This document shows positions 1-14,127 of a stretch of 32,127 nt of DNA, in pieces. Position 1 is the stretch's first letter, and each line of letters begins with the position of its first letter. The stretch is taken from positions 1 to 32,127 of the forward strand of contig JBFMGO010000071.1 of the NCBI GenBank assembly GCA_040752695.1, read 5' to 3'. Origin of the DNA: a bacterium (GTDB lineage Bacteria > SZUA-182 > DTGQ01). The position numbers and the translations under genes are program-made. The notes below the pieces were generated by a model. It made no database searches. It was not told where the DNA came from and saw nothing but the letters and a program-made list of their open reading frames with translations.

Positions 1-1472
1 TCCGGCGCAGAAGGGGTGAGATTTTTCCTGTAGAGCGATGCAGTGAGAGTATCATCCTCCGCGAGTTTATAAGTCCCGGTTACCGAGAGGCTTACCCCCT
101 CATCTTTCAAGCGTTCATCTTGTCCTAACCCTGTTTCCGGGGCATTATAAGTATCAAAACGGATACCCGGTGTAAGCAGGAATCTGTCGGTTATGCTCCA
201 GTTATCCTGAAGATAGTATCCCCACATATGGCTCGATTGCCCGTCGCTTCTGGTGATTGTTCTGCCTGGTGCGTAATTTGGATCTACATAGTGGACATCC
301 TGACCTGCGGTAGAGATAACTTTCCCTTCGATTCCGCAGAGAATTTCGTGATCCTTCAAAGGCATATCAAACTCAAAGCTCCCGCCATATGACCTGTCGG
401 GCTTCACGGTTCTGTCAAGGACAAGCTGTCCATCGGGATACTTTTTGTTGAGCCAGCTTGCCGAGTAATTTTTTTCATCTCTGTCCTCATAATTTTTGTA
501 TGCCTTAAACTCAAAGAAGGCATTTCTAACGGGCTGTTTATATCCAAGATCGAGAAGATACTTTGTCTTTTCCCAGTGGGCTCCCGGACCGGGATTTGTT
601 AAATTACCCGCACCGGGAGAAAAGCTTTCCCCGAGGGAAAGTGGATAGTCAGGATTTCTTTTTACATTAAAGTTTGGATTATCAGGATTACTATGGAGTC
701 TGTTTAATATGGCAAAACCACGGTCAACATCGGTATATTGAACTCCTAAGGACATCTCTGCCATGAAAGGCATATCAACATAAAGCTTGGTTGAATAATT
801 TTTTGCTTCATAATCATTGTTCCAGAGAAATTCATCCGCCTTCTGGTAGCTTCCCCCGATAGAATACCCTAAAGGCCCGATCTTATAGGTATGGGTGATC
901 CGGTAACTCTGGGTGTAATCGATGTCCTCACCTGCGCCGTAATTGCCATAAAAGGAAAAAGTCGGTTTCTCGGCGGGCTTTTTGGTGACAACATTGATAA
1001 CTCCTCCTCCGGCATTATTGCCATATTTGACCGAGCTTCCGCCTTTCATCACTTCAATTCTTTCAATGTTATCCAAAGGGATCGTGCTCCAATCGATGAA
1101 ATAGCCGCCCTGGACTCCCGCAGCATTGATGGACCTGCCATCGATATTCAACATAATCCTGTTGCCTGAAAGCCCCCTGATCTTGAGTGTATCACTGGTA
1201 TCGCCAACTAAAGCTCTCCTGTTTATGTCTATCTCGGGCTCATTCTTTAAAACATCAGGGATATTGGTATTTTTACCCTTCTCGATAGTTTTCTCACCGA
1301 CTACCGTGACGGCAGATCCAGCTTCTTCCGATACCAGTATTTCCTCCAGGGTGAGATGCTTTACCGGCTGTCCTTTCTGTTCCGTATCCGGCGCGGTCCC
1401 GGCACCATATACAGTCGAGACCGTAATAATGACTAAGCTAAATATACTGATAAACTGAGAAAATTTCTTCAT
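1..1472 (-). CDS. TonB-dependent receptor, 3' end truncated by window start (absent from ORF track)
   Basis: Manual translation from ATG 1472 gives signal peptide MKKFSQFISIFSLVIITVSTVYG, TonB-box-like LEEILVS and plug motifs IRGLSGNRIMLNIDGR and IPLDNIERIEVMKGGSSVKYGNNAGGGVINVVTKK. AGGAGG SD upstream. Frame was open as far as read (to ~290). Confidence 0.9.
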   Translation of the reverse strand, partial: MKKFSQFISIFSLVIITVSTVYGAGTAPDTEQKGQPVKHLTLEEILVSEEAGSAVTVVGEKTIEKGKNTNIPDVLKNEPEIDINRRALVGDTSDTLKIRGLSGNRIMLNIDGRSINAAGVQGGYFIDWSTIPLDNIERIEVMKGGSSVKYGNNAGGGVINVVTKKPAEKPTFSFYGNYGAGEDIDYTQSYRITHTYKIGPLGYSIGGSYQKADEFLWNNDYEAKNYSTKLYVDMPFMAEMSLGVQYTDVDRGFAILNRLHSNPDNPNFNVKRNPDYPLSLGESFSPGAGNLTNPGPGAHWEKTKYLLDLGYKQPVRNAFFEFKAYKNYEDRDEKNYSASWLNKKYPDGQLVLDRTVKPDRSYGGSFEFDMPLKDHEILCGIEGKVISTAGQDVHYVDPNYAPGRTITRSDGQSSHMWGYYLQDNWSITDRFLLTPGIRFDTYNAPETGLGQDERLKDEGVSLSVTGTYKLAEDDTLTASLYRKNLTPSAP

Positions 1473-1505
1473 TTCAAGCCCCTCCTGATTTCAAGCCCCC
1501 TCCTG
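1471..1505. repeat. 17/18-bp tandem duplication containing the Shine-Dalgarno of the receptor gene
   Basis: atttcaagcccctcctg (1471-1487) followed by atttcaagccccctcctg (1488-1505). Confidence 0.85.
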
Positions 1506-1514
1506 GAATTGGAA

Positions 1515-1605
1515 TGTGGGCCGCATCCCTGACTTTGGATACGGCCCACAAAGAGAGTAAGCATGAATCCCACCACGATTGGTGGAGCCGTAATGTTCAC
1601 TGTGA
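1515..1605 (-). promoter_or_regulatory. Repeated two-hairpin leader element, copy 1 (candidate cis-regulatory RNA)
   Basis: 1550-1591 is identical to 6042-6083. Minus-strand hairpins CCACCA-AUCG-UGGUGG and GGCCGUAUCC-AAAGUCAG-GGAUGCGGCC. The repeat is certain, the function is inferred. Confidence 0.55.
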
Positions 1606-1629
1606 AGTAATATCTCTATAGTTATCTCC

Positions 1630-2085
1630 TTATTGACGGTGACGGCGCGCACGTTTCGCGAGCCCAATACAACCGATCAGGCCAAAGATAACGGCTATTC
1701 CCATACTGATTCTCAGGTACAGAGGAACGACTTTCTCCTCTCTTTTTCCCTCCACTTTCATAGTCTCATTTACCGGGACCTTGATTTCCAGACGGTGCCC
1801 CATCTGATCAAATACCAATATTTCCCACTCACCAGGTTTATCCGGGAAAAATGCAAACCTGCCATTCAAATCAGTCTTGCCCGTCTGGAATTTTTCTTTT
1901 GAGTTTGGGGCAAAAACAGCTACAGATAATCCTTTAGCAGGTAAATGATCGTCAAAAGATGCCTGGACCACAATTCCCCCTGAACCAAGCGAATATTCGA
2001 TCCCATGGGCATAAAGAAGGGCACTGTAACCTTGAGCCAGGCACAGCCCAAGGATTAACAATCCTATTTTCACGGGCTGTTTCAT
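1630..2085 (-). CDS. Exported, C-terminally anchored metal-uptake accessory protein (NikL/CbiL-like)
   Basis: Signal peptide ending ALLYA followed by His (HGIEY), motif QTGKTDLNGRFAFFPDKPGEW...DQMGH, C-terminal TM helix. Overlaps the DUF4198 stop by 4 bp. Confidence 0.7.
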   Translation of the reverse strand: MKQPVKIGLLILGLCLAQGYSALLYAHGIEYSLGSGGIVVQASFDDHLPAKGLSVAVFAPNSKEKFQTGKTDLNGRFAFFPDKPGEWEILVFDQMGHRLEIKVPVNETMKVEGKREEKVVPLYLRISMGIAVIFGLIGCIGLAKRARRHRQ

Positions 2086-2804
2086 TTTATTTCAAAGGTC
2101 AACGAGGCTGAAAAATCCACCTTATGGTTACCAACTACCATCCATATACCCGGTTTGCTGATTTTTATCTGGGCTTCTCCCTGGTCATTGCTTTTGCTGA
2201 GGACGGGAAAGGGTTCATCCTCGGAGTAATATCCGGCATAAGTAGCATACAGATAGGTAGACAGGGGTTTGCCCTCAAAAAGTATCTTTACGGGAAGAGA
2301 ATCTCCGGGTTTTAATTCCTGGGGATTTTTTAAGGGAATAATCTCAATACGATGACCAAATTGACGGTTGATGTTAGCATTTCCTTTCCCTGCGATAATG
2401 ATGGATTTCCCATATTTTTCTGATGGTACATGTTCTTTATCCCCTTTCCTCTTCCGGTAAGTGCCGACTACATAGGTCCCTTTTTGATCGATGCTCATCT
2501 CTCCCACCAAGGCTCCTCCTGCTTTTTCTCCCTGCCTGTCTTCCCAGGTTTTGGTAATTTCCTTTTTCTCCCCGTCAGGAGAAAAATAACAAAACTCAGG
2601 TAGTTCATCTTTTTGAACCAAGATATCGTAATAAGGAAAATTATGGCCAAAAACGACCTTTATGTTAGTTTTTTGTCCCACTGCCGGCGAATGATTATCA
2701 ATATTGAGCCAAAGATCATGAGCTAAGACCCGGTTGGCATAAAAAGAGAAACAAGCTGAAATACACAATAAAGCCAAAGACAATCTTATCCACGTTTTTT
2801 CCAT
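2082..2804 (-). CDS. DUF4198 family periplasmic protein (NikK-like, nickel/cobalt uptake associated)
   Basis: Signal peptide then AHDLWL; motifs FGHNFP, EIIPLKNP, VKILFEGKPL, SNDQGEA...PGIWMV. Confidence 0.8.
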   Translation of the reverse strand: MEKTWIRLSLALLCISACFSFYANRVLAHDLWLNIDNHSPAVGQKTNIKVVFGHNFPYYDILVQKDELPEFCYFSPDGEKKEITKTWEDRQGEKAGGALVGEMSIDQKGTYVVGTYRKRKGDKEHVPSEKYGKSIIIAGKGNANINRQFGHRIEIIPLKNPQELKPGDSLPVKILFEGKPLSTYLYATYAGYYSEDEPFPVLSKSNDQGEAQIKISKPGIWMVVGNHKVDFSASLTFEIK

Positions 2805-2903
2805 GATACATTCCTCCCCGTTTTGTAAGATTTTTATAAGATTCCAGATGATTGGATTGTATGTTAAGAAAATATTCCTACACGCTCATCAACTCGATAA
2901 CCA

Positions 2904-4733
2904 TTAAAAGTTGATATGAAAGCCACCTGAATAGAGAATGGCCATATCGAAATATTTTGAAGACTCCGGCGTCTCATCAAAGATATTGTCGACAGCCAGG
3001 AACAATTGAACAGTTTTCGACAGGTCCTTCATGATCTTGGCGTTGGCCAGATAACATTCATCGGATTCTTGCGTAAGTTTACTGTCTTTAAACATCTTAC
3101 CAAGATATTCCATATCATAATGGAGACTGAAGCCATACGGTTTGTTCTCGTATCCGACCCTGAATTTGCCCGTATGTTTAGGCATGTTTTGGATTTGTTT
3201 CTTGATCTCCTTATCCTCTGTCTGGTTATAGGTATAGGCTATGGATGTAAACAGCCCTTTAATCGGTGCGGATTGTAATTCGATTTCAAAGCCTTGTGAA
3301 TAAGCGTCATTAATATTATAAGCCTGCTGTATAGGTTCCCCTGTTTCATAAGTACCAACCTCCCTGGAGCTGATCATATCTTTAATATCATTTCTGAAAA
3401 AAGAAATACGACCAAGCAGCATATCAGCCAGGGTGTGTTCCAGATCCAGACTGTATCCGATGGACTTTTCCGGTTTAAGGTCCGGATTGCCTATGATCCA
3501 ATACTGAACGTGATGATGCGGTGTGGTTTTATATAACTGATCAAGACTAGGTGCCAGGAAGGCACGGCCTGCATTCAATCGTAGATTAGTCTTTGGACTT
3601 ATCTTATAAAGAATGCTTCCTTTAGGATTGAATTCGGTCCCCCATTGATCATGATGATCTATCCGCCCTGCCAAAACAATGGTCAACGATTCTATCAAGC
3701 CAATTTCATCCTGAAAAAATCCGCTGACAATATCTTCATCCTTCTTTCCTACCTCAGTGGAATCGATATTGTTTTGCCGATATTCACTGCCAAGGGTAAT
3801 CAGGTGCTTTTGGCCAATCATCCGGCTGTATTGAATTTCCCCCAGATAATTGTCATAATCCCAGTCTCTTGGGGTCTGCCCAGGGCGGATATCCTTTCGA
3901 TCAGCTCTATGGTCTGTAACCCTCAACTTGAGGTTCGAGGTTTCCCCGACATTGGAATCGAAAGATATCCCTACATTAACCTTGGTATCGTCCAAATACT
4001 CGCTCTTTTCATCATACAGATTGAGATTAAGGGACAGCCGGTCACCTGGGCTAAGATCGTATTGAAAATTGCCCAGCATATTTTTACCGTCGTATTCATA
4101 ACCGCTTCCCATTTGATCTGTTTTATGATTTCCTACACCAAAGGTATATGAAAATTTCTCATATCGATCTCCAAAATTCATCTGCGTATCTACCGTATTA
4201 CCAGTGCCATAGGATGCCGATCCATTGAAGTAGCTTCTCTTGACTCCCTTTTTGGTAATAATGTTAACTACTCCGGCAACGGCATCACTGCCATACAGAA
4301 CAGATGAAGGTCCCTTGATGACTTCAATTCTCTCGATCATCTCTGCCGGGATATTCGAAAGATCTATGGCATTAGCGTGTCTGCCGGTCTGCCTTTGGCC
4401 ATCGATCAAGACCAGTGTATATTTATCAGGCAGTCCCTCGATACTGACCGATTCCCGGGCAAATCCATTTGATTTAATGAAAACTCCCGGCACCCAGCGC
4501 AGGGCTTCTCCCGCAGTTTGGGCATTTGATTTTTGGATCTCCTCCTGGGTAATCAAATAGGTAGTGACAGGAGTATCCTCCAGTGTGTGCTGGGTTTTGG
4601 TAGCTGTAACTACAATATCCTCCAATCTTAAAGCATCTCTCCCTGGCTTTTCCTGATCAGCTCCTATGGCTGGTCTGGCAAGAAAAGTACAGGTCACAAC
4701 GAAAATAAAAAACAGGTACGTTATTCTCCACAT
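2904..4733 (-). CDS. TonB-dependent outer membrane receptor (probably for a metal or metal chelate)
   Basis: LEDIVVTATKT, IERIEVIKGPSSVLYGSDAVAGVVNIITKK, GNPDLKPEKS, C-terminal Phe; a PHHHV segment in a probable loop. Confidence 0.95.
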   Translation of the reverse strand: MWRITYLFFIFVVTCTFLARPAIGADQEKPGRDALRLEDIVVTATKTQHTLEDTPVTTYLITQEEIQKSNAQTAGEALRWVPGVFIKSNGFARESVSIEGLPDKYTLVLIDGQRQTGRHANAIDLSNIPAEMIERIEVIKGPSSVLYGSDAVAGVVNIITKKGVKRSYFNGSASYGTGNTVDTQMNFGDRYEKFSYTFGVGNHKTDQMGSGYEYDGKNMLGNFQYDLSPGDRLSLNLNLYDEKSEYLDDTKVNVGISFDSNVGETSNLKLRVTDHRADRKDIRPGQTPRDWDYDNYLGEIQYSRMIGQKHLITLGSEYRQNNIDSTEVGKKDEDIVSGFFQDEIGLIESLTIVLAGRIDHHDQWGTEFNPKGSILYKISPKTNLRLNAGRAFLAPSLDQLYKTTPHHHVQYWIIGNPDLKPEKSIGYSLDLEHTLADMLLGRISFFRNDIKDMISSREVGTYETGEPIQQAYNINDAYSQGFEIELQSAPIKGLFTSIAYTYNQTEDKEIKKQIQNMPKHTGKFRVGYENKPYGFSLHYDMEYLGKMFKDSKLTQESDECYLANAKIMKDLSKTVQLFLAVDNIFDETPESSKYFDMAILYSGGFHINF

Positions 4734-4888
4734 TTCAATCTCTCTCCCTTTTTGATTTCAACCTATCGACGGTCAGTGTAATGGCCGAAGATCCTCCCCC
4801 TTGTCTGTTTGCAGTTCACCTCCATTCCTCTTTCCGGTTTCATTTTTTTGCCGATTTAGCCATAGCTAATGGCCAAGGTAATAAAATG

Positions 4889-4948
4889 AAAAAAGGCCAT
4901 GACTCCCTCACTGATCTTCCGATCTGTTTAGGGCCTTCATGGCCTTTT
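4889..4948 (-). terminator. Leader terminator/attenuator copy C with GGCC-AUGAA-GGCC in the 5' arm
   Basis: AAAAGGCCAUGA pairs with UCAUGGCCUUUU, then CCCU/AGGG and apical GAUC-GGAA-GAUC, ending in U6. About 155 nt upstream of the receptor start. Confidence 0.7.
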
Positions 4949-5000
4949 GTTTTACACGATAATATCTGTGATCTTTTCTGCACTCTCAAGGATCGCCGTG

Positions 5001-5031
5001 TGGACGATTCCTTCGTATGGACGACTCCTTC
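5001..5031. repeat. 14-bp direct repeat with 17-bp period between the two leader terminators
   Basis: tggacgattccttc (5001-5014) and tggacgactccttc (5018-5031). Confidence 0.7.
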
Positions 5032-5068
5032 AGTGGTTCTGCTGAAAAATGCTGGTAATGGAATCTCT

Positions 5069-5148
5069 CCGAAAAGAGAAAAAGCCATGAAGGCTTTTTC
5101 TCTTTTCGGCTGTTTCTTAGCCAGCGAAAAAGCCTTCATGGCTTTTTT
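5069..5148 (-). terminator. Leader terminator/attenuator copy B with an alternative fold
   Basis: 22-bp perfect inverted repeat 5079-5100/5126-5147, and an alternative 18-bp perfect hairpin 5069-5086/5092-5109. Confidence 0.7.
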
Positions 5149-5244
5149 ATTACGTGGTTTTACTATTGCCCTTCTGTTCTTATGAAATCGGGAATAGCCT
5201 TATTTTTAGATTTCTGCTTCTTTCTGAAGCAATTATTGCTATAA

Positions 5245-5273
5245 TAAATACCAAGCGAGGCTCTTTTTGTCAA
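5245..5273 (-). promoter_or_regulatory. Putative sigma70 promoter for the TonB receptor operon
   Basis: TTGACA-N17-TATTTA with TG upstream of the -10. Confidence 0.45.
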
Positions 5274-5299
5274 GGGGAAAATAGTGGCCCTGCTTATGG

Positions 5300-5494
5300 T
5301 TATTCTGTTCTTTCCAACAAAATCTTATGATTAAGTAATGAGATCTTTTTGATTTTGCCCTGTAAGATCTTTTGATCGCCGAATATATTCACAATGAGCA
5401 GACTGTTCTCGTTTTCAGGCTGAATCACATCTACCAATTCCATAAAAAGCTCTTCATTTCCTTCCGCTTCAAGATAGGCATTTGCTTCGCACAT
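5300..5494 (-). CDS. cooT: CooT family nickel-binding protein
   Basis: 64 aa, MCEANAYL start with Cys2, NIFGDQK motif, C-terminal NHKILLE. Confidence 0.88.
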   Translation of the reverse strand: MCEANAYLEAEGNEELFMELVDVIQPENENSLLIVNIFGDQKILQGKIKKISLLNHKILLERTE

Positions 5495-5500
5495 GATGTT

Positions 5501-5926
5501 TTACTCCTTCTCTCCTTTTATCATTTCCTTAACCTTTCGAACCAGTTTATCAGTCAGATGAGGCAGCGGTTCATTTTGATAGCCGATAAGGGAAACAGCC
5601 TCCATAGGAAGGGGCAACAGGAGCTTTAAGGCCCTGCTGTTGGCAATCGCCTCCGCCATTTTTGGCGTTAATTCCCCCATCATGGAATTGGACATGACCA
5701 CATTAACCGATCCAATAATAATGTCTACACGATCAATAACATACCTGATGGCATTTTCTCCGGAAGCACCCTTGTTAGCCTTGGCTTTCATCATAACCGA
5801 AGTAGCCAGAGAATTAGTGCCTAAGGCGATAATTTCCAGGGACTGCAATTCCGCTTCATCTCTCAGCCGTTTAATGATATAACTTCCAATACCACCACCA
5901 TGCCCATCGACAACCGCAACAATCAA
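5501..5926 (-). CDS. DUF3842 family protein
   Basis: VAVVDGHGGGIG, IIALGTNSLATSVM, GASGENAI, NSMMGELTPKMAEAIA. Start moved from 5980 to TTG 5926, which follows AAGGAGG. Confidence 0.85.
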   Translation of the reverse strand: MIVAVVDGHGGGIGSYIIKRLRDEAELQSLEIIALGTNSLATSVMMKAKANKGASGENAIRYVIDRVDIIIGSVNVVMSNSMMGELTPKMAEAIANSRALKLLLPLPMEAVSLIGYQNEPLPHLTDKLVRKVKEMIKGEKE

Positions 5927-6000
5927 TGGATTGCCCTCCTTTTCGTAGTCCGCTCGTATAGAGGGATAGACACGGGACACCCCATGTTAAAAAAGCTGCT

Positions 6001-6096
6001 TGCGGCAGGCCGCATCTCTGAATTTAGATGTGGCTCGCACAAAAGAGAGTAAGCATGAATCCCACCACGATTGGTGGAGCCGTGATGCCGCTGTGA
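6001..6096 (-). promoter_or_regulatory. Repeated two-hairpin leader element, copy 2
   Basis: 6042-6083 is identical to 1550-1591; the flanking hairpin has a C-G to U-A compensatory change at its apical pair. Confidence 0.55.
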
Positions 6097-6159
6097 TGCA
6101 CTCTTTTCCGGGTTTTCCGGGGTCTCCTCTCCCTGTTCTTTGTTCATTGTCAGTCGCCT

Positions 6160-6218
6160 AAAAAACAAAAAGCCATGAAAGCTCCGGATATTCCATCCGA
6201 AAAAAGCCTTCATGGCTT
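6160..6218 (-). terminator. Leader terminator/attenuator copy A upstream of DUF3842-cooT
   Basis: AAGCCAUGAAGGCU pairs with AGCUUUCAUGGCUU (14 bp, one G-U), inner UCGGAU/AUCCGG stem, tail UUUUUGUUUUUU. Confidence 0.72.
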
Positions 6219-6412
6219 ATATAGTCTCAAAAGAGTAAATGACTTAAATAACTATTTTATAGCCTTCGCCCCTGCATCAGCTTGAAGGCATTGCCGCTTT
6301 TCTCAAACTATTTCGCTTCGTCATCAGGCTTTCCCCGCTCTTTTTCGTTTATTGAAACACAAAAGGGTGTCACAAGCCTGGTCACGAAACATGAATTTTT
6401 ATCATTTATGTA

Positions 6413-6442
6413 ATTATTAGCAAGAGATGCTATGCTTGTCAA
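6413..6442 (-). promoter_or_regulatory. Putative sigma70 promoter for DUF3842-cooT
   Basis: TTGACA-N18-AATAAT in the divergent intergenic region. Confidence 0.4.
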
Positions 6443-6695
6443 GCGATTATTTTTTTCCTCAATTCCCGTTCAATTCAACAAGAGCTGCCTATGGTTCAGA
6501 TTACGACAGCGGGACAATTACTCTCAACAGAAATATAAGTATCCATAGAGAGAAAATACACCGTGGTCTCAGATTTCAGCCGATCGAGACGATAATAATA
6601 GTATACGAAGGGATGAGAATGGAGGTTTTTTTCTCATCCTTTGCAGTTCTCCGCTACCGTTGTCCTTAAGGTATCTTCACCGCAAAAAGGTTATC

Positions 6696-8477
6696 ATGAA
6701 AGAACGACTCGGCGAATTACTCCTCAAGGCAAAAATGATTACTGAGGAGCAGCTTCAGCTTGGATTGGAGGAGCAAAAAAAAACGGGTGGACGCCTGGGC
6801 TTTAACCTGATCAAGCTCGGCTTTCTGCAAGAGGAAGATATCCTCTGGTTTTTAAGCAAGCAGTATGGAGTTCCAACCATCAATTTAAACGGCTTTGACG
6901 TGGATGATGATGTAATCAACCTCGTCCCGCAGGACCTGGCGAGAAAATACAGTTGCATTCCCATCAGTCTTACGGCTGGCATCCTGACCCTGGCCATGGT
7001 TGATCCTTCCAATGTCTTTGCCATCGATGATATCAAATTTTTTACCGGCTGTTCCGTGGAAACGGTGGTCACCTCTGAATCCTCCTTTAAAAAGGCCTTT
7101 GATAAATACTACCGGAAGAAGCCCTCTGCCACGATGGAAATCGATGCCAAGGATTATGATATCGATGAACAGAAATCCCCGGGTATCGATTTCATGGAAG
7201 AAGTGGACGATGCTGTCGTAGACATCGAAGATTTTGATACCATTGTCAAGGGTGCAATTGATAATGTAGAAGTGGTGGAGGATCAGGAAGAAGACAGCAT
7301 ATTGGACGTTGATGCTCCGATTGTCAAACTGGTCAACGGCATCCTGATCAAGGCTGTGAAAATGGGGGTCAGTGACATTCACATCGAGCCGTATGAAAAA
7401 AGCTTCCGTGTCCGCTACCGTCTGGACGGGGTGCTTCGCAAGGTTATGGGCCTGCCGCTCAAGATCAAGAATGCCGTGGTTTCCCGGATCAAGATCATGT
7501 CCAGGCTGGACATTGCGGAAAAGCGACTGCCTCAGGATGGCCGCATTAAATTGAAACTTGGGAAAAAAAGAGACATGGATTTCCGGGTTTCGGTACTCCC
7601 TACCCTTTTTGGAGAAAAGGTGGTTATGCGGTTGCTGGATAAGGCAAATCTGCAACTGGACATGAGTAAACTGGGATTCGAACCCAAGACCCTGGAACTG
7701 TTTCAGGAAGCCATCCATAGTCCTTACGGCATGGTTCTGGTGACCGGACCTACGGGAAGCGGCAAGACCACCACTCTCTACTCGGCCCTGAACCAGCTCA
7801 ATGACGAAGAAACCAATATCATGACTGCCGAAGATCCGGTGGAATTCAACCTGGCAGGTATTAATCAGGTTCAGGTGAAGGAGCAGATCGGTCTGACCTT
7901 TGCCGCTGCCCTGCGATCCTTCCTGCGTCAGGATCCGGACGTGATCATGGTGGGAGAAATCAGGGACGCCGAAACCGCTGAAATCGGGATAAAAGCGGCC
8001 CTGACCGGACATCTTGTATTAAGTACTCTTCATACGAATGATGCACCAGGCACAATTGGCCGATTATTAAATATGGGGATGGAACCTTTTCTCGTTTCAT
8101 CGTCCGTGATTTTGATTGTGGCCCAGCGGTTGGCCAGAAAGATTTGTTCCCATTGCAAGACGGAAATCGAAGTGCCTCAGAAGGCCCTGGTCCGGCTCGG
8201 TTTTTCGTCCGATGAGGCTGGCGGGATGAAAATCTACAAGGGAAAGGGCTGCGGCAACTGTAATAACACCGGCTATAAGGGCCGGATCGCCCTCTATGAG
8301 GTCATGAAAATTTCAGAAAGCATTAAGCTGCTTATTCTGAATGGTGCTCCGATTAACGAACTCAAAGCGCAGGCCCGCAAAGAGGGTATGAAAACTCTCA
8401 GGGACAGCGGCCTGCAAAAGATCCGGGAGGGAGTCACCTCGATCGAAGAAGTGTTGCGGGTATCTTTCGATGATTAA
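6696..8477 (+). CDS. pilB: Type IV-A pilus assembly ATPase PilB with N-terminal MshEN domain
   Basis: RLGELLL...RLGFNLIKLG, SDIHIEP, RLPQDGR, Walker A GPTGSGKTT, LRQDPDVIMVGEIRD, CSHC...CGNC. ATG 6696 preferred as start. Confidence 0.96.
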   Translation: MKERLGELLLKAKMITEEQLQLGLEEQKKTGGRLGFNLIKLGFLQEEDILWFLSKQYGVPTINLNGFDVDDDVINLVPQDLARKYSCIPISLTAGILTLAMVDPSNVFAIDDIKFFTGCSVETVVTSESSFKKAFDKYYRKKPSATMEIDAKDYDIDEQKSPGIDFMEEVDDAVVDIEDFDTIVKGAIDNVEVVEDQEEDSILDVDAPIVKLVNGILIKAVKMGVSDIHIEPYEKSFRVRYRLDGVLRKVMGLPLKIKNAVVSRIKIMSRLDIAEKRLPQDGRIKLKLGKKRDMDFRVSVLPTLFGEKVVMRLLDKANLQLDMSKLGFEPKTLELFQEAIHSPYGMVLVTGPTGSGKTTTLYSALNQLNDEETNIMTAEDPVEFNLAGINQVQVKEQIGLTFAAALRSFLRQDPDVIMVGEIRDAETAEIGIKAALTGHLVLSTLHTNDAPGTIGRLLNMGMEPFLVSSSVILIVAQRLARKICSHCKTEIEVPQKALVRLGFSSDEAGGMKIYKGKGCGNCNNTGYKGRIALYEVMKISESIKLLILNGAPINELKAQARKEGMKTLRDSGLQKIREGVTSIEEVLRVSFDD

Positions 8478-12739: not shown

Positions 12740-14127
12740 GATCGATTCTCGTTATTGATGATGAAGAAAGTATGTGCATATGCCTGGCTGTCATTCTCCG
12801 CAAGGAGGGGTATACGGTTCAGTACGCAACTCAACCGGAAAAAGCAATTGAATTGATCAAGACGCATACCTTCGATCTGGCCCTTTTGGATATCAAGATG
12901 CCTGGTGTGAGCGGATTGGATCTGCTCAAAGTCATTAAGCAGATAAGCCCCGAAACAGTGGTCATCATGATGACCGCTTATGCATCAACCGAGACAGCGG
13001 TTCGGGCCATCAAGTGGGGAGCCTACGACTATCTCACCAAACCCTTCAAGGATAATGACGAGGTTAAGCATATCATCAAAAACGCCCTGGAAAAAAAACA
13101 ACTGGCAGAGGAAAATCGTGCTCTGCGCAGCGAGCTTTTTGATCTTAAAGACCATTACCAGCTCGACAGCATCGTGGGCAAGAGTAAAAAAATGAAAGAG
13201 ATTTTCTCCATTATCCAAAGGATCGCCGACACCGGCAGTACGGTTCTGATTACCGGAGAAAGCGGGACGGGCAAGGAACTGGTAGCACGTGCCATTCATA
13301 ATCACAGCAGCCGCAAAGACAAACCCCTGGTCAGCCTTAATTGCGGTGCCATGCCCGAAGGACTTTTGGAGAGCGAACTGTTCGGACATGTCAGGGGGGC
13401 CTTCACCGGAGCAATCGCCACCAAAAAAGGGCTCTTCGAGCTGGCGGACGGAGGGACATTATTCCTGGACGAAGTCGGCACCACTCCACTGCCAATCCAG
13501 GTCAAACTGCTCCGTGTTCTTCAGGACCGGGAAATACGCAAAGTAGGGTCTACGGAAAAAGCCCAGGTGGACGTGCGGCTGATAGCAGCCACCAACATCG
13601 ATATAAAGGCCGCCGTTGCCGAAGGAACCTTCAGGGAGGATCTGTACTATCGCCTCAATGTTATCCCTGTCCACATGCCCCCCTTAAGGGAGCGGGAAGG
13701 AGATATCCCTTTACTGGCCGATCATTTTCTCAATCTCTTCAATCAAAAATCCCGGCAGGAGCCCAAAAAGATCTCTCCAGAGGCAGTACGGCTTCTGGCC
13801 GACTATGCATGGCCGGGAAATGTCCGGGAAATGGAAAACACCATTGAGCGGGTCGTGGCTCTGACCACGAAAAGTATCATAGGGCCGGAAGACTTGCCGG
13901 AAAATGTCCGGCACTTCTCGACGAATGAAGGACCTGCCATAGATTACAGCATCGAGCAGGGTGTAGATCTGGAAAAAATCATGGACAGCCTGGAAAAAAG
14001 CCTCATTTTCCAGGCCCTGGATAAGAGTAACGGTAACAAGACCCGGGCAGCGGAGCTCCTGAATCTGAGCTTTCGCTCCTTCCGGTATCGCCTGAAAAAA
14101 TATGATCACCAGGAAACCGGCGAGTAG
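12736..14127 (+). CDS. pilR: Sigma54-dependent response regulator PilR (NtrC family)
   Basis: Receiver domain (DDE, DIKMP), GESGTGKE, GAFTGA, WPGNVRE, Fis-type HTH ending SFRSFRYRL. Confidence 0.92.
   Translation: MRSILVIDDEESMCICLAVILRKEGYTVQYATQPEKAIELIKTHTFDLALLDIKMPGVSGLDLLKVIKQISPETVVIMMTAYASTETAVRAIKWGAYDYLTKPFKDNDEVKHIIKNALEKKQLAEENRALRSELFDLKDHYQLDSIVGKSKKMKEIFSIIQRIADTGSTVLITGESGTGKELVARAIHNHSSRKDKPLVSLNCGAMPEGLLESELFGHVRGAFTGAIATKKGLFELADGGTLFLDEVGTTPLPIQVKLLRVLQDREIRKVGSTEKAQVDVRLIAATNIDIKAAVAEGTFREDLYYRLNVIPVHMPPLREREGDIPLLADHFLNLFNQKSRQEPKKISPEAVRLLADYAWPGNVREMENTIERVVALTTKSIIGPEDLPENVRHFSTNEGPAIDYSIEQGVDLEKIMDSLEKSLIFQALDKSNGNKTRAAELLNLSFRSFRYRLKKYDHQETGE

Follow-up and report, generated by a model that had tools for sequence, protein, structure and literature searches.

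A widespread family of leader attenuators upstream of nickel uptake genes, and a candidate role for DUF3842 and CooT in their control

We analyzed a stretch of 32,127 nucleotides (contig JBFMGO010000071.1 of GenBank assembly GCA_040752695.1, hereafter "the window") from a bacterium of the GTDB lineage SZUA-182; DTGQ01. On its minus strand lie a DUF3842 gene and a CooT gene, together with three leader terminators, here named attenuators A, B and C, that share a short hairpin-forming sequence. The DUF3842 gene (positions 5501..5926) encodes 141 amino acids from a TTG start at 5926, with the Shine-Dalgarno-like sequence AAGGAGGG 8 nt upstream, and its product belongs to PF12953 (E = 8.4e-50). The CooT gene (5300..5494) encodes 64 amino acids and is assigned to its family by PF10133 (E = 2e-22) and by PDB entry 6fan (E = 6.9e-14); the conserved Cys2 is invariant in all eight aligned sequences. 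Attenuator A precedes this gene pair, attenuator B lies between CooT and an operon that starts with a TonB-dependent receptor, and attenuator C follows B by 135 nt.

The 11-mer GCCAUGAAGGC (in its exact form GCCATGAAGGC) occurs on the minus strand at 6206-6216 (A), 5132-5142 (B) and 4933-4943 (C), as a first-pass annotation of the sequence had reported. Allowing one mismatch, the window holds seven matches where 1.0 is expected, a number reached by none of 100 shuffles; the additional matches are mostly the complementary 3′ arms, read as the reverse complement, of copies A and B. Folding bore out that every copy supplies the 5′ arm of a hairpin with a U run behind it. The hairpins of A, B and C have energies of -29.0, -41.9 and -29.3 kcal/mol (z = -4.8, -7.2 and -5.0), with none of 200 shuffles as good in any of the three cases, and each is a stable G+C-containing hairpin directly before a run of 5-6 U, as in an intrinsic terminator. 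The inner parts of the three hairpins are unrelated in sequence. The motif also folds on its own (-5.5, -8.4 and -6.8 kcal/mol for A, B and C), and next to the GCC/GGC stem A and B have an A-U pair where C has G-C. The minimum-energy fold of terminator C leaves the AGG of the motif without partners. The full 15-mer, AAGCC-AYGAA-GGCUU, can fold into a 5-bp mini-hairpin with a pentaloop, and it is at the same time the base of the terminator 5′ arm, so that the mini-hairpin and the terminator exclude each other. In folds of partial leaders the mini-hairpin forms first during transcription.

Attenuator A (6160..6218) consists of the 15-mer AAGCCAUGAAGGCUU at 6204-6218, the inner hairpin, a 3′ arm at 6172-6182 and a U tract at 6160-6171. 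It scores 62 bits with the covariance model R1 described below, and its orthologues in genomes G001 and G002 have the same inner hairpin and also precede DUF3842. The promoter of this leader (6413..6442) combines TTGACA and AATAAT at a distance of 18 nt, and matches the consensus at 11 of 12 positions in a promoter scan. Within the 230 nt that separate attenuator A from the start of DUF3842 there is a further small hairpin with a T run (GCGGCCUGCCGC...CUUUUUU, approximately 5989-6013, minus strand), which could be another stop or a processing site.

Attenuator B (5079..5148; 69 bits) contains the 15-mer at 5130-5144, a 3′ arm at 5084-5094 that is its perfect complement, and a U run at 5079-5083. 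The -35 element TTGACA at 5268..5273 was read directly from the sequence, as the simple promoter scan did not list it; the promoter block is kept in the related genome G002. The 5′-proximal hairpin H1 of this leader (5216..5230, GCUUC-AGAAA-GAAGC) is a near-variant of the C-(N)NGAA-G loop hairpins discussed below. Attenuator C (4889..4947; 50.5 bits) contains GGCC-AUGAA-GGCC at 4932-4944, a 3′ arm at 4895-4902 and a U tract at 4889-4894, and lies 158 nt before the start of the TonB receptor. Between B and C, two tandem 17-nt direct repeats (GAAGGARUCGUCCAYAC, 4998..5031) each open with the YGAAGG word of the motif, and may be extra sites for whatever reads it. The earlier proposal of a TTGACA promoter for every copy stands for A and B; for C we found only a weak TTGAGA/GATATT candidate (9 of 12 positions), and C is more likely a second tandem stop within the leader of B than part of a leader with its own promoter.

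A leader-peptide reading, in which the AUG of the motif starts translation, was rejected because the ACG variants of the motif cannot start translation. The open reading frames that begin at this AUG (5923-6213 and 4840-5139, minus strand; 96 and 99 codons) are without a Pfam match, are not conserved and are likely to be spurious.

The genes behind B and C (3..4733, all on the minus strand, Pfam assignments) are two TonB-dependent receptors (2904-4733, and 3-1472, which runs off the window), separated by a DUF4198/NikK-like gene (2082-2804) and a NikL-like gene (1630-2085). The last of these matches the NCBIfam NikL family with E = 2.6e-14, which is below the cut-off of that family. Type IV pilus genes lie on the other side of the window and the remainder is housekeeping.

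Copies of the motif were then sought in the source genome and elsewhere. The 6.05-Mb genome contains 19 exact 11-mers, against 2 for a reversed control; 14 of the 19 lie in coding-like sequence, and the others are in A, B (two, one per strand), C, contig 73 and contig 102. This gives five loci in which the motif is part of a hairpin with a U tract, with the contig 73 copy upstream of a TonB receptor gene and the contig 102 copy upstream of a gene for a 715-amino-acid protein followed by ExbB/ExbD-like genes. Among the terminator stem bases of the genome, GCCATGA...TCATGGC followed by T5 is the most frequent (6 occurrences, against 4 for the next). The contig 73 copy has a hairpin of its own, GCCCUGAAAAAGGGC, 7 nt upstream (approximately 13090-13106, minus strand; locus L021/L055), which in the G002 orthologue reads GCCCUGGAAAAGGGC. 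We take GCCCUGAAAAAGGGC to be letter for letter the lambda nutR boxB; this likeness is probably a coincidence.

An exact-pattern scan over 61 genomes, both related and unrelated, detected copies in 7 of them, with up to 10 per genome, and the inner stems differ between these copies yet stay complementary. The covariance model R1 was built from 26 exact-pattern copies. Scanned over 20 genomes of the phylum, all of which belong to one class (the phylum level added none), it returned 44 unique matches, of which 43 are credible, in 11 genomes; the remaining match, in genome G016, was discarded as a plain terminator. No match was obtained in one family of six genomes of the phylum. Natural variants combine GCCACGAAGGC with CUUCGUGGC and GCCGUGAAGG with CUUCACUGC, with GAAGG invariant. 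A wider scan, with AAGCCAYGAAGGCUU, a gap and UCRUGGCUUUU as pattern, covered 185,579 species genomes and gave at least 122 loci and at least 118 unique copies. The matches listed, to which all further figures for this wide set refer, include hosts from Desulfobacterota, Nitrospirota, some Firmicutes, a Treponema metagenome-assembled genome and others, among them the cultured Thermodesulfovibrio sp. N1, Alkalibaculum sporogenes and Desulfovirgula thermocuniculi.

The element appears to be uncatalogued. Covariance-model searches against Rfam 15 gave no match at gathering scores over the whole window, including to cobalamin or NiCo aptamers, in agreement with the first reading of the sequence; at E values up to 10, the region 4400-6800 gave chance matches only (rli52, trpB and microRNA models), all on the B hairpin. 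The literature on CooT, DUF3842 and nickel riboswitches or RNA motifs yielded no description of the element, in a search largely confined to non-subscription journals. The words riboswitch and terminator are absent from a paper on nickel in cable bacteria (PMC11247825). We conclude that all three attenuators are members of an uncatalogued and widespread family, located in the leaders of genes for the uptake of nickel or possibly nickel/cobalt.

Structure and conservation were assessed in an alignment of the 43 copies found with R1. The outer 14 pairs of the terminator are formed in 91.5% of cells, and both sides have changed in 13 cells distributed over 4 pairs, which none of 500 shuffles reach. 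In the wide set, for which the search pattern left Y and R free, this Y/R pair is C-G in 68, U-A in 42, U-G in 8 and C-A in none of the 118 copies. The five pairs of the mini-hairpin are formed in 97.2% of cells; its fourth pair changes from A-U to G-C in 2 of the 43 copies, and again in genome G162. G19 and G20 are invariant in all 43 copies, with their terminator partners unpaired in 7 and 10 of these, respectively, and the partner of C21 is unpaired in 19. The 5′ arm is therefore held more tightly than the terminator requires, which extends to the family what had been proposed from copy C of the window. Part of the conservation of the core is ascertainment, because R1 was trained on pattern-selected copies. 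The alignment showed no conserved bases in internal loops.

The position of the elements identifies them as leader terminators, as had been supposed, and not as terminators at gene ends. The -35 sequence CTTGACA is the most enriched word upstream of the elements (18 of 44 copies, 0.2 expected). The only other words enriched in the 130 nt upstream are CACGAAG (8 of 44) and CATGAAG (6 of 44), with 0.1-0.3 expected. These words lie in the loops of small hairpins whose stems differ, such as GUAAUC-AUGAA-GAUUAC and UCUUC-ACGAA-GAAGA, and which start 23-205 nt before the element. Hairpins with a C-NNGAA-G loop are present in 19 of 44 leaders, compared to 2% of random genome windows and 0.6% of shuffles. 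A loop census without a preset pattern in the wide set was led by CAGAAG (20), CAUGAAG (11) and CUGAAG (11), each with at most 0.17 expected. In the same set, C-N(1,2)GAA-G hairpins occur in 55 of 115 leaders compared to 1% of shuffles, six permuted control loops occur 0-2 times in these leaders, and in 14 of 118 copies the terminator itself has C-AGAA-G as its apical loop. A factor that reads the loop would lead one to expect further hairpins with the same loop, which about half of the leaders contain. We also considered that the upstream hairpin might pair as an antisense with the terminator arm, which fails for CACGAAG and for stems of the GUAAUC type.

The genes served by the element are a nickel, or nickel/cobalt, uptake set, and the earlier expectation of nickel/cobalt uptake and handling genes was borne out in many genomes. 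Among 30 first downstream open reading frames scanned in the phylum set, seven encode a TonB receptor (Plug), four FmdE and two a porin; DUF3842, DUF4198, a ChlI-type chelatase, a methyltransferase, a permease, a BlaI-type repressor, CMD and a membrane protein occur once each, eight are without a family and one belongs to the discarded match. The 55 first downstream frames of the wide set comprise Plug (10), outer-membrane channels (11), CbiM (7), TonB_C/ExbB/DUF3450 (4), methyltransferases (4) and FmdE (2), and single instances of FecCD, a NikA-type binding protein, CobN, a corrin methylase, TrmO_N, an Fe-hydrogenase, a DsbD_2/VIT1 membrane protein, a response regulator and a transposase, with eight without a family. 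Clustering of the open reading frames around 156 loci (with some overlap, and again among matches listed) gave TonB receptors at 29 loci, CbiM at 23, CooT at 13 and DUF3842 at 12. We also observed genes for TrmO/TsaA-like barrel proteins in the regulon of the element in distant genomes (loci L026 in G002, and L159), and genes for small histidine-rich proteins at loci L017 and L006.

The presence of the element is tied to that of DUF3842 and CooT. Wide-scan genomes with the element, of which the completeness is unknown, contain DUF3842 in 48 of 50 and CooT in 47 of 50 cases, against 1 and 2, respectively, of 41 unrelated genomes. Within the phylum, DUF3842 is found in 10 of 11 genomes with the element and in 2 of 9 without it; of these two exceptions, one is a genome of 76% completeness, and weak variants of the element are present in the other. 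In a Desulfocapsa-type order, sampled evenly with 91 genomes, DUF3842 occurs in 8 genomes and R1 matched 7 before inspection. The sole match in a genome without DUF3842 (G191) was rejected on inspection as a plain terminator without GAAGG. An apparent miss, G162, carries two copies that flank DUF3842-CooT, so that the order element-DUF3842-CooT-element of the window recurs in this distant order. After these corrections the element is present in 7 of the 8 genomes with DUF3842, compared to 0 credible cases in the 83 without. The CooT family as such is found in 79 of the 91 genomes, with high-scoring copies beside DUF3842 only in the same 8, and in most genomes with the element CooT adjoins DUF3842.

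Two further arrangements of these genes were observed. A second DUF3842-CooT pair on contig 26 (16561-17212, minus strand; locus L063) has a CTTGACA promoter and no copy of the element; the genus thus has one attenuated and one unattenuated DUF3842-CooT pair. At loci L068 and L069 (G016 and G017, from a single family of the phylum), the gene before DUF3842 encodes a CheY-like receiver, and no element precedes DUF3842.

Several known systems resemble the element in part. In the targets of ANTAR proteins (EutV, NasR, AmiR), as described in PMC8934654, a free hairpin is followed by a second one that overlaps the 5′ arm of the terminator and has the same loop, and the protein-held second hairpin prevents termination. 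Similarly, the mini-hairpin overlaps the terminator 5′ arm, and the upstream hairpins of many leaders carry the same loop as the mini-hairpin. In contrast, the loops found here, closed by C-G, have 5 nt (AYGAA) or 4 nt (NGAA) and are not hexaloops; their first base is A, but the G is third (AYGAA) or second (AGAA), which is not the A1/G4 combination given in that source. Loop size and the position of the G thus uphold the earlier statement that this is not an ANTAR loop. There is also no short fixed linker, the hairpins here being 23-205 nt apart, whereas a linker longer by 20 nt abolishes the action of EutV (PMC8934654), and the regulon is one of metal uptake. A search with PF03861 (ANTAR) gave no match in the genome, and none in 14 control genomes either.

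More generally, BglG/LicT/SacY (acting at RAT sites), PyrR, TRAP and HutP are ligand-controlled RNA-binding proteins that select between a terminator and an alternative fold of the leader. To our knowledge, none of these senses a metal for the control of uptake. TRAP and HutP read repeated short words, as the YGAAG repeats might be read here; the sequence motif of the element differs, and PF03123 (CAT_RBD) has no match in the genome of the window (96.6% complete), while 4 of 14 control genomes were matched.

The regulon is of the same kind as that of NikR, a DNA-binding repressor of nikMNQO/nikKL and TonB receptor genes with the operator GTGTTAC-N13/14-GTAACAC (PMC545781). No such site, with up to 3 mismatches, was found near the leaders. 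Likewise, NikR_C is without a match in this 96.6% complete genome rich in nickel-uptake genes; 5 of 14 controls were matched. That the element displaces NikR as a general rule was nevertheless rejected, as NikR_C coexists with DUF3842 elsewhere (see below).

Based on these observations, we consider a factor-dependent antitermination of the nickel regulon, with DUF3842-CooT as the most likely reader and sensor, to be somewhat the better bet. Transcription would start at a strong promoter and by default stop at the very stable intrinsic terminator; termination must be the default in view of the high stability of the hairpins and their good U tracts. The 15-mer would fold into the mini-hairpin on leaving the polymerase. 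As this hairpin (-5 to -8 kcal/mol) cannot rival a hairpin of -29 to -42 kcal/mol unaided, something must hold it for read-through to occur. We infer that a trans-acting factor reads the C-AYGAA-G loop and the like loops on the upstream hairpins, and that by holding the mini-hairpin it keeps the 5′ arm off the 3′ arm, such that the polymerase may read into the uptake genes. Read-through would presumably take place when nickel is scarce. The reader could be recruited early, at the upstream look-alike loops, and then be passed on to the mini-hairpin; a recruit-then-pass-on model has been proposed for ANTAR proteins (PMC8934654). The tandem stops B and C would sharpen the response of the TonB receptor operon. 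DUF3842-CooT is taken as the most likely reader and sensor because it is the sole genomic correlate of the element. Of this pair, CooT binds nickel, and DUF3842 is a small domain resembling nucleotide-binding ones.

The antitermination put forward in the first-pass annotation is consistent with the placement of the terminators in leaders, with the lack of an Rfam family, with the extra conservation of the 5′ arm and with the nickel/cobalt regulon. Covariation in the mini-hairpin is weak: both sides have changed in 2 cells of 1 pair, and 39 of 500 shuffles reach that. Support for the mini-hairpin is, judged from the alignment, mostly conservation and no proof of pairing; the terminator and the A and U tracts also limit variation in the bases on its two sides.

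Other points weigh against antitermination by DUF3842-CooT. Among the 129 copies considered (matches listed), DUF3842 directly follows 3 and CooT directly precedes 8; the correlation could mean that the pair is the most constant member of the regulon and not its reader. Close-kin genomes in the samples are not independent. About half of the leaders are without an upstream look-alike hairpin, and none was found in leader A. NikR_C is present in 83 of the 91 genomes of the Desulfocapsa-type order, including 7 of the 8 with DUF3842; the element is therefore not a plain NikR substitute, and the two may act side by side. The AlphaFold2 model of DUF3842 (predicted local distance difference test score 88.8) has a Rossmann-like fold with a glycine-rich first loop. 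Foldseek against the PDB gave a best template-modelling score of 0.5 (UbiX, USP, SDR) and a wide VIA-align search gave Z values of at most 9.2 with many Rossmann-like families, neither pointing to a specific relative; the ESM Atlas returned only DUF3842 clusters, and the sequence search of the PDB returned nothing below E = 0.68. As judged from its model, DUF3842 is thus generic Rossmann-like with no RNA-binding relative. It is near neutral (isoelectric point 5.6-8.9) and CooT is acidic (4.4-5.1 in 7 of 8 sequences); neither of the two resembles a classical RNA binder. The authors of the Rhodospirillum rubrum CooT structure reportedly looked for an RNA role and found none.

The main rival to a protein reader is a riboswitch that functions without protein as a sensor embedded in the terminator. 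The 5′ arm, perhaps with the GAA loops, would bind Ni2+, Co2+ or a nickel-related metabolite and so shift the balance between mini-hairpin and terminator. We regard this as rather unlikely, in spite of several features that speak for it. The near-identity of the element across several phyla is usual for ligand pockets, and the regulon (CbiM, TonB receptors, CobN, FecCD and one corrin methylase) is like those of metal or cofactor riboswitches. Sensing of Ni/Co by an RNA is known from the NiCo (czcD) riboswitch, which folds as a four-way junction and activates efflux genes. Aptamers within terminators are established as well, as the HMP-PP (thiS) riboswitch reportedly has conserved bases inside the stem of an intrinsic terminator. 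Unlike the NiCo riboswitch, the element precedes uptake and not efflux genes, and it differs from both in having no Rfam match and a much smaller conserved core. This core comprises only about 15 nt and the complementary arm, with none of the internal-loop bases conserved, and the rest of the leaders varies in sequence and length. Separate hairpins with the same loop at 23-205 nt upstream fit a reader protein better than a single pocket, and an RNA that suffices by itself would have no need of DUF3842-CooT, with which the element strictly co-occurs.

A second possibility keeps the trans-acting reader and replaces its identity: another RNA-binding protein, or a small RNA complementary to CAYGAAG, would act on the loops, with DUF3842-CooT as just a constant member of the regulon. 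That neither DUF3842 nor CooT looks like an RNA binder fits such a scheme, as does genome G013 (85% complete), which has a good copy of the element and in which no DUF3842 was seen. However, apart from the transport genes no further family recurs beside the element, and CAT_RBD is not found in the genome. For a small RNA, hairpins with the antisense word (CUUCRUG) are at background level genome-wide (45, versus 52 for the sense word), a count of little diagnostic value, and a single antisense word could not pair with both AGGAA and AGAA loops. We judge another trans-acting factor to be improbable.

Third, the palindromes might act as DNA, as operators of a dimeric transcription factor, with the RNA hairpins incidental. 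Each hairpin is indeed also a palindrome in the DNA, and CTTCATGAAG, in some of the upstream hairpins, is a perfect 10-bp one. The arms are, however, 43-57 nt apart at a variable spacing, a U tract on the strand of the gene ends each element, and the upstream hairpins keep their centre (the loop) with flanks (the stems) that vary but remain complementary, the reverse of what is seen in an operator; this makes an operator very improbable. Finally, that these are ordinary terminators or a dispersed repeat, sharing sequence by descent and without regulatory meaning, is hardly credible: AAAAGCC...GGCUUUU is a common terminator base, and the G191 and G016 matches were plain terminators, but the elements lie in leaders behind promoters and not at gene ends, serve a restricted set of genes, combine the same 15-mer with unrelated inner stems in several phyla, and make GCCATGA the commonest stem base of the genome solely through the five loci.

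Returning to antitermination by DUF3842-CooT, its most specific form can be offered tentatively: DUF3842 with its dedicated CooT may constitute a new metal-sensing, RNA-binding antiterminator of C-(N)NGAA-G loops, which would switch nickel-uptake regulons in at least four phyla. Nickel uptake is thought to be controlled at the level of DNA, by NikR and other repressors, and RNA-level control of nickel import was found neither in Rfam nor in the literature searched. If the proposal is correct, DUF3842-CooT would be without precedent among known proteins in linking the nickel status to RNA instead of DNA. A protein reader would define a new family of antiterminators; if instead the RNA itself is the sensor, it would be a new metal riboswitch. 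The element also gives a testable role to DUF3842, which is unstudied, and to the half-understood subfamily of CooT proteins outside the carbon monoxide dehydrogenase context. The element is a compact 15-nt hairpin handle on a regulon of outer-membrane receptors, energy-coupling factor importers, chelatase-like genes and chaperones in many uncultured anaerobes, and as this handle is defined by sequence, it can be used to predict which of their transporters handle nickel.

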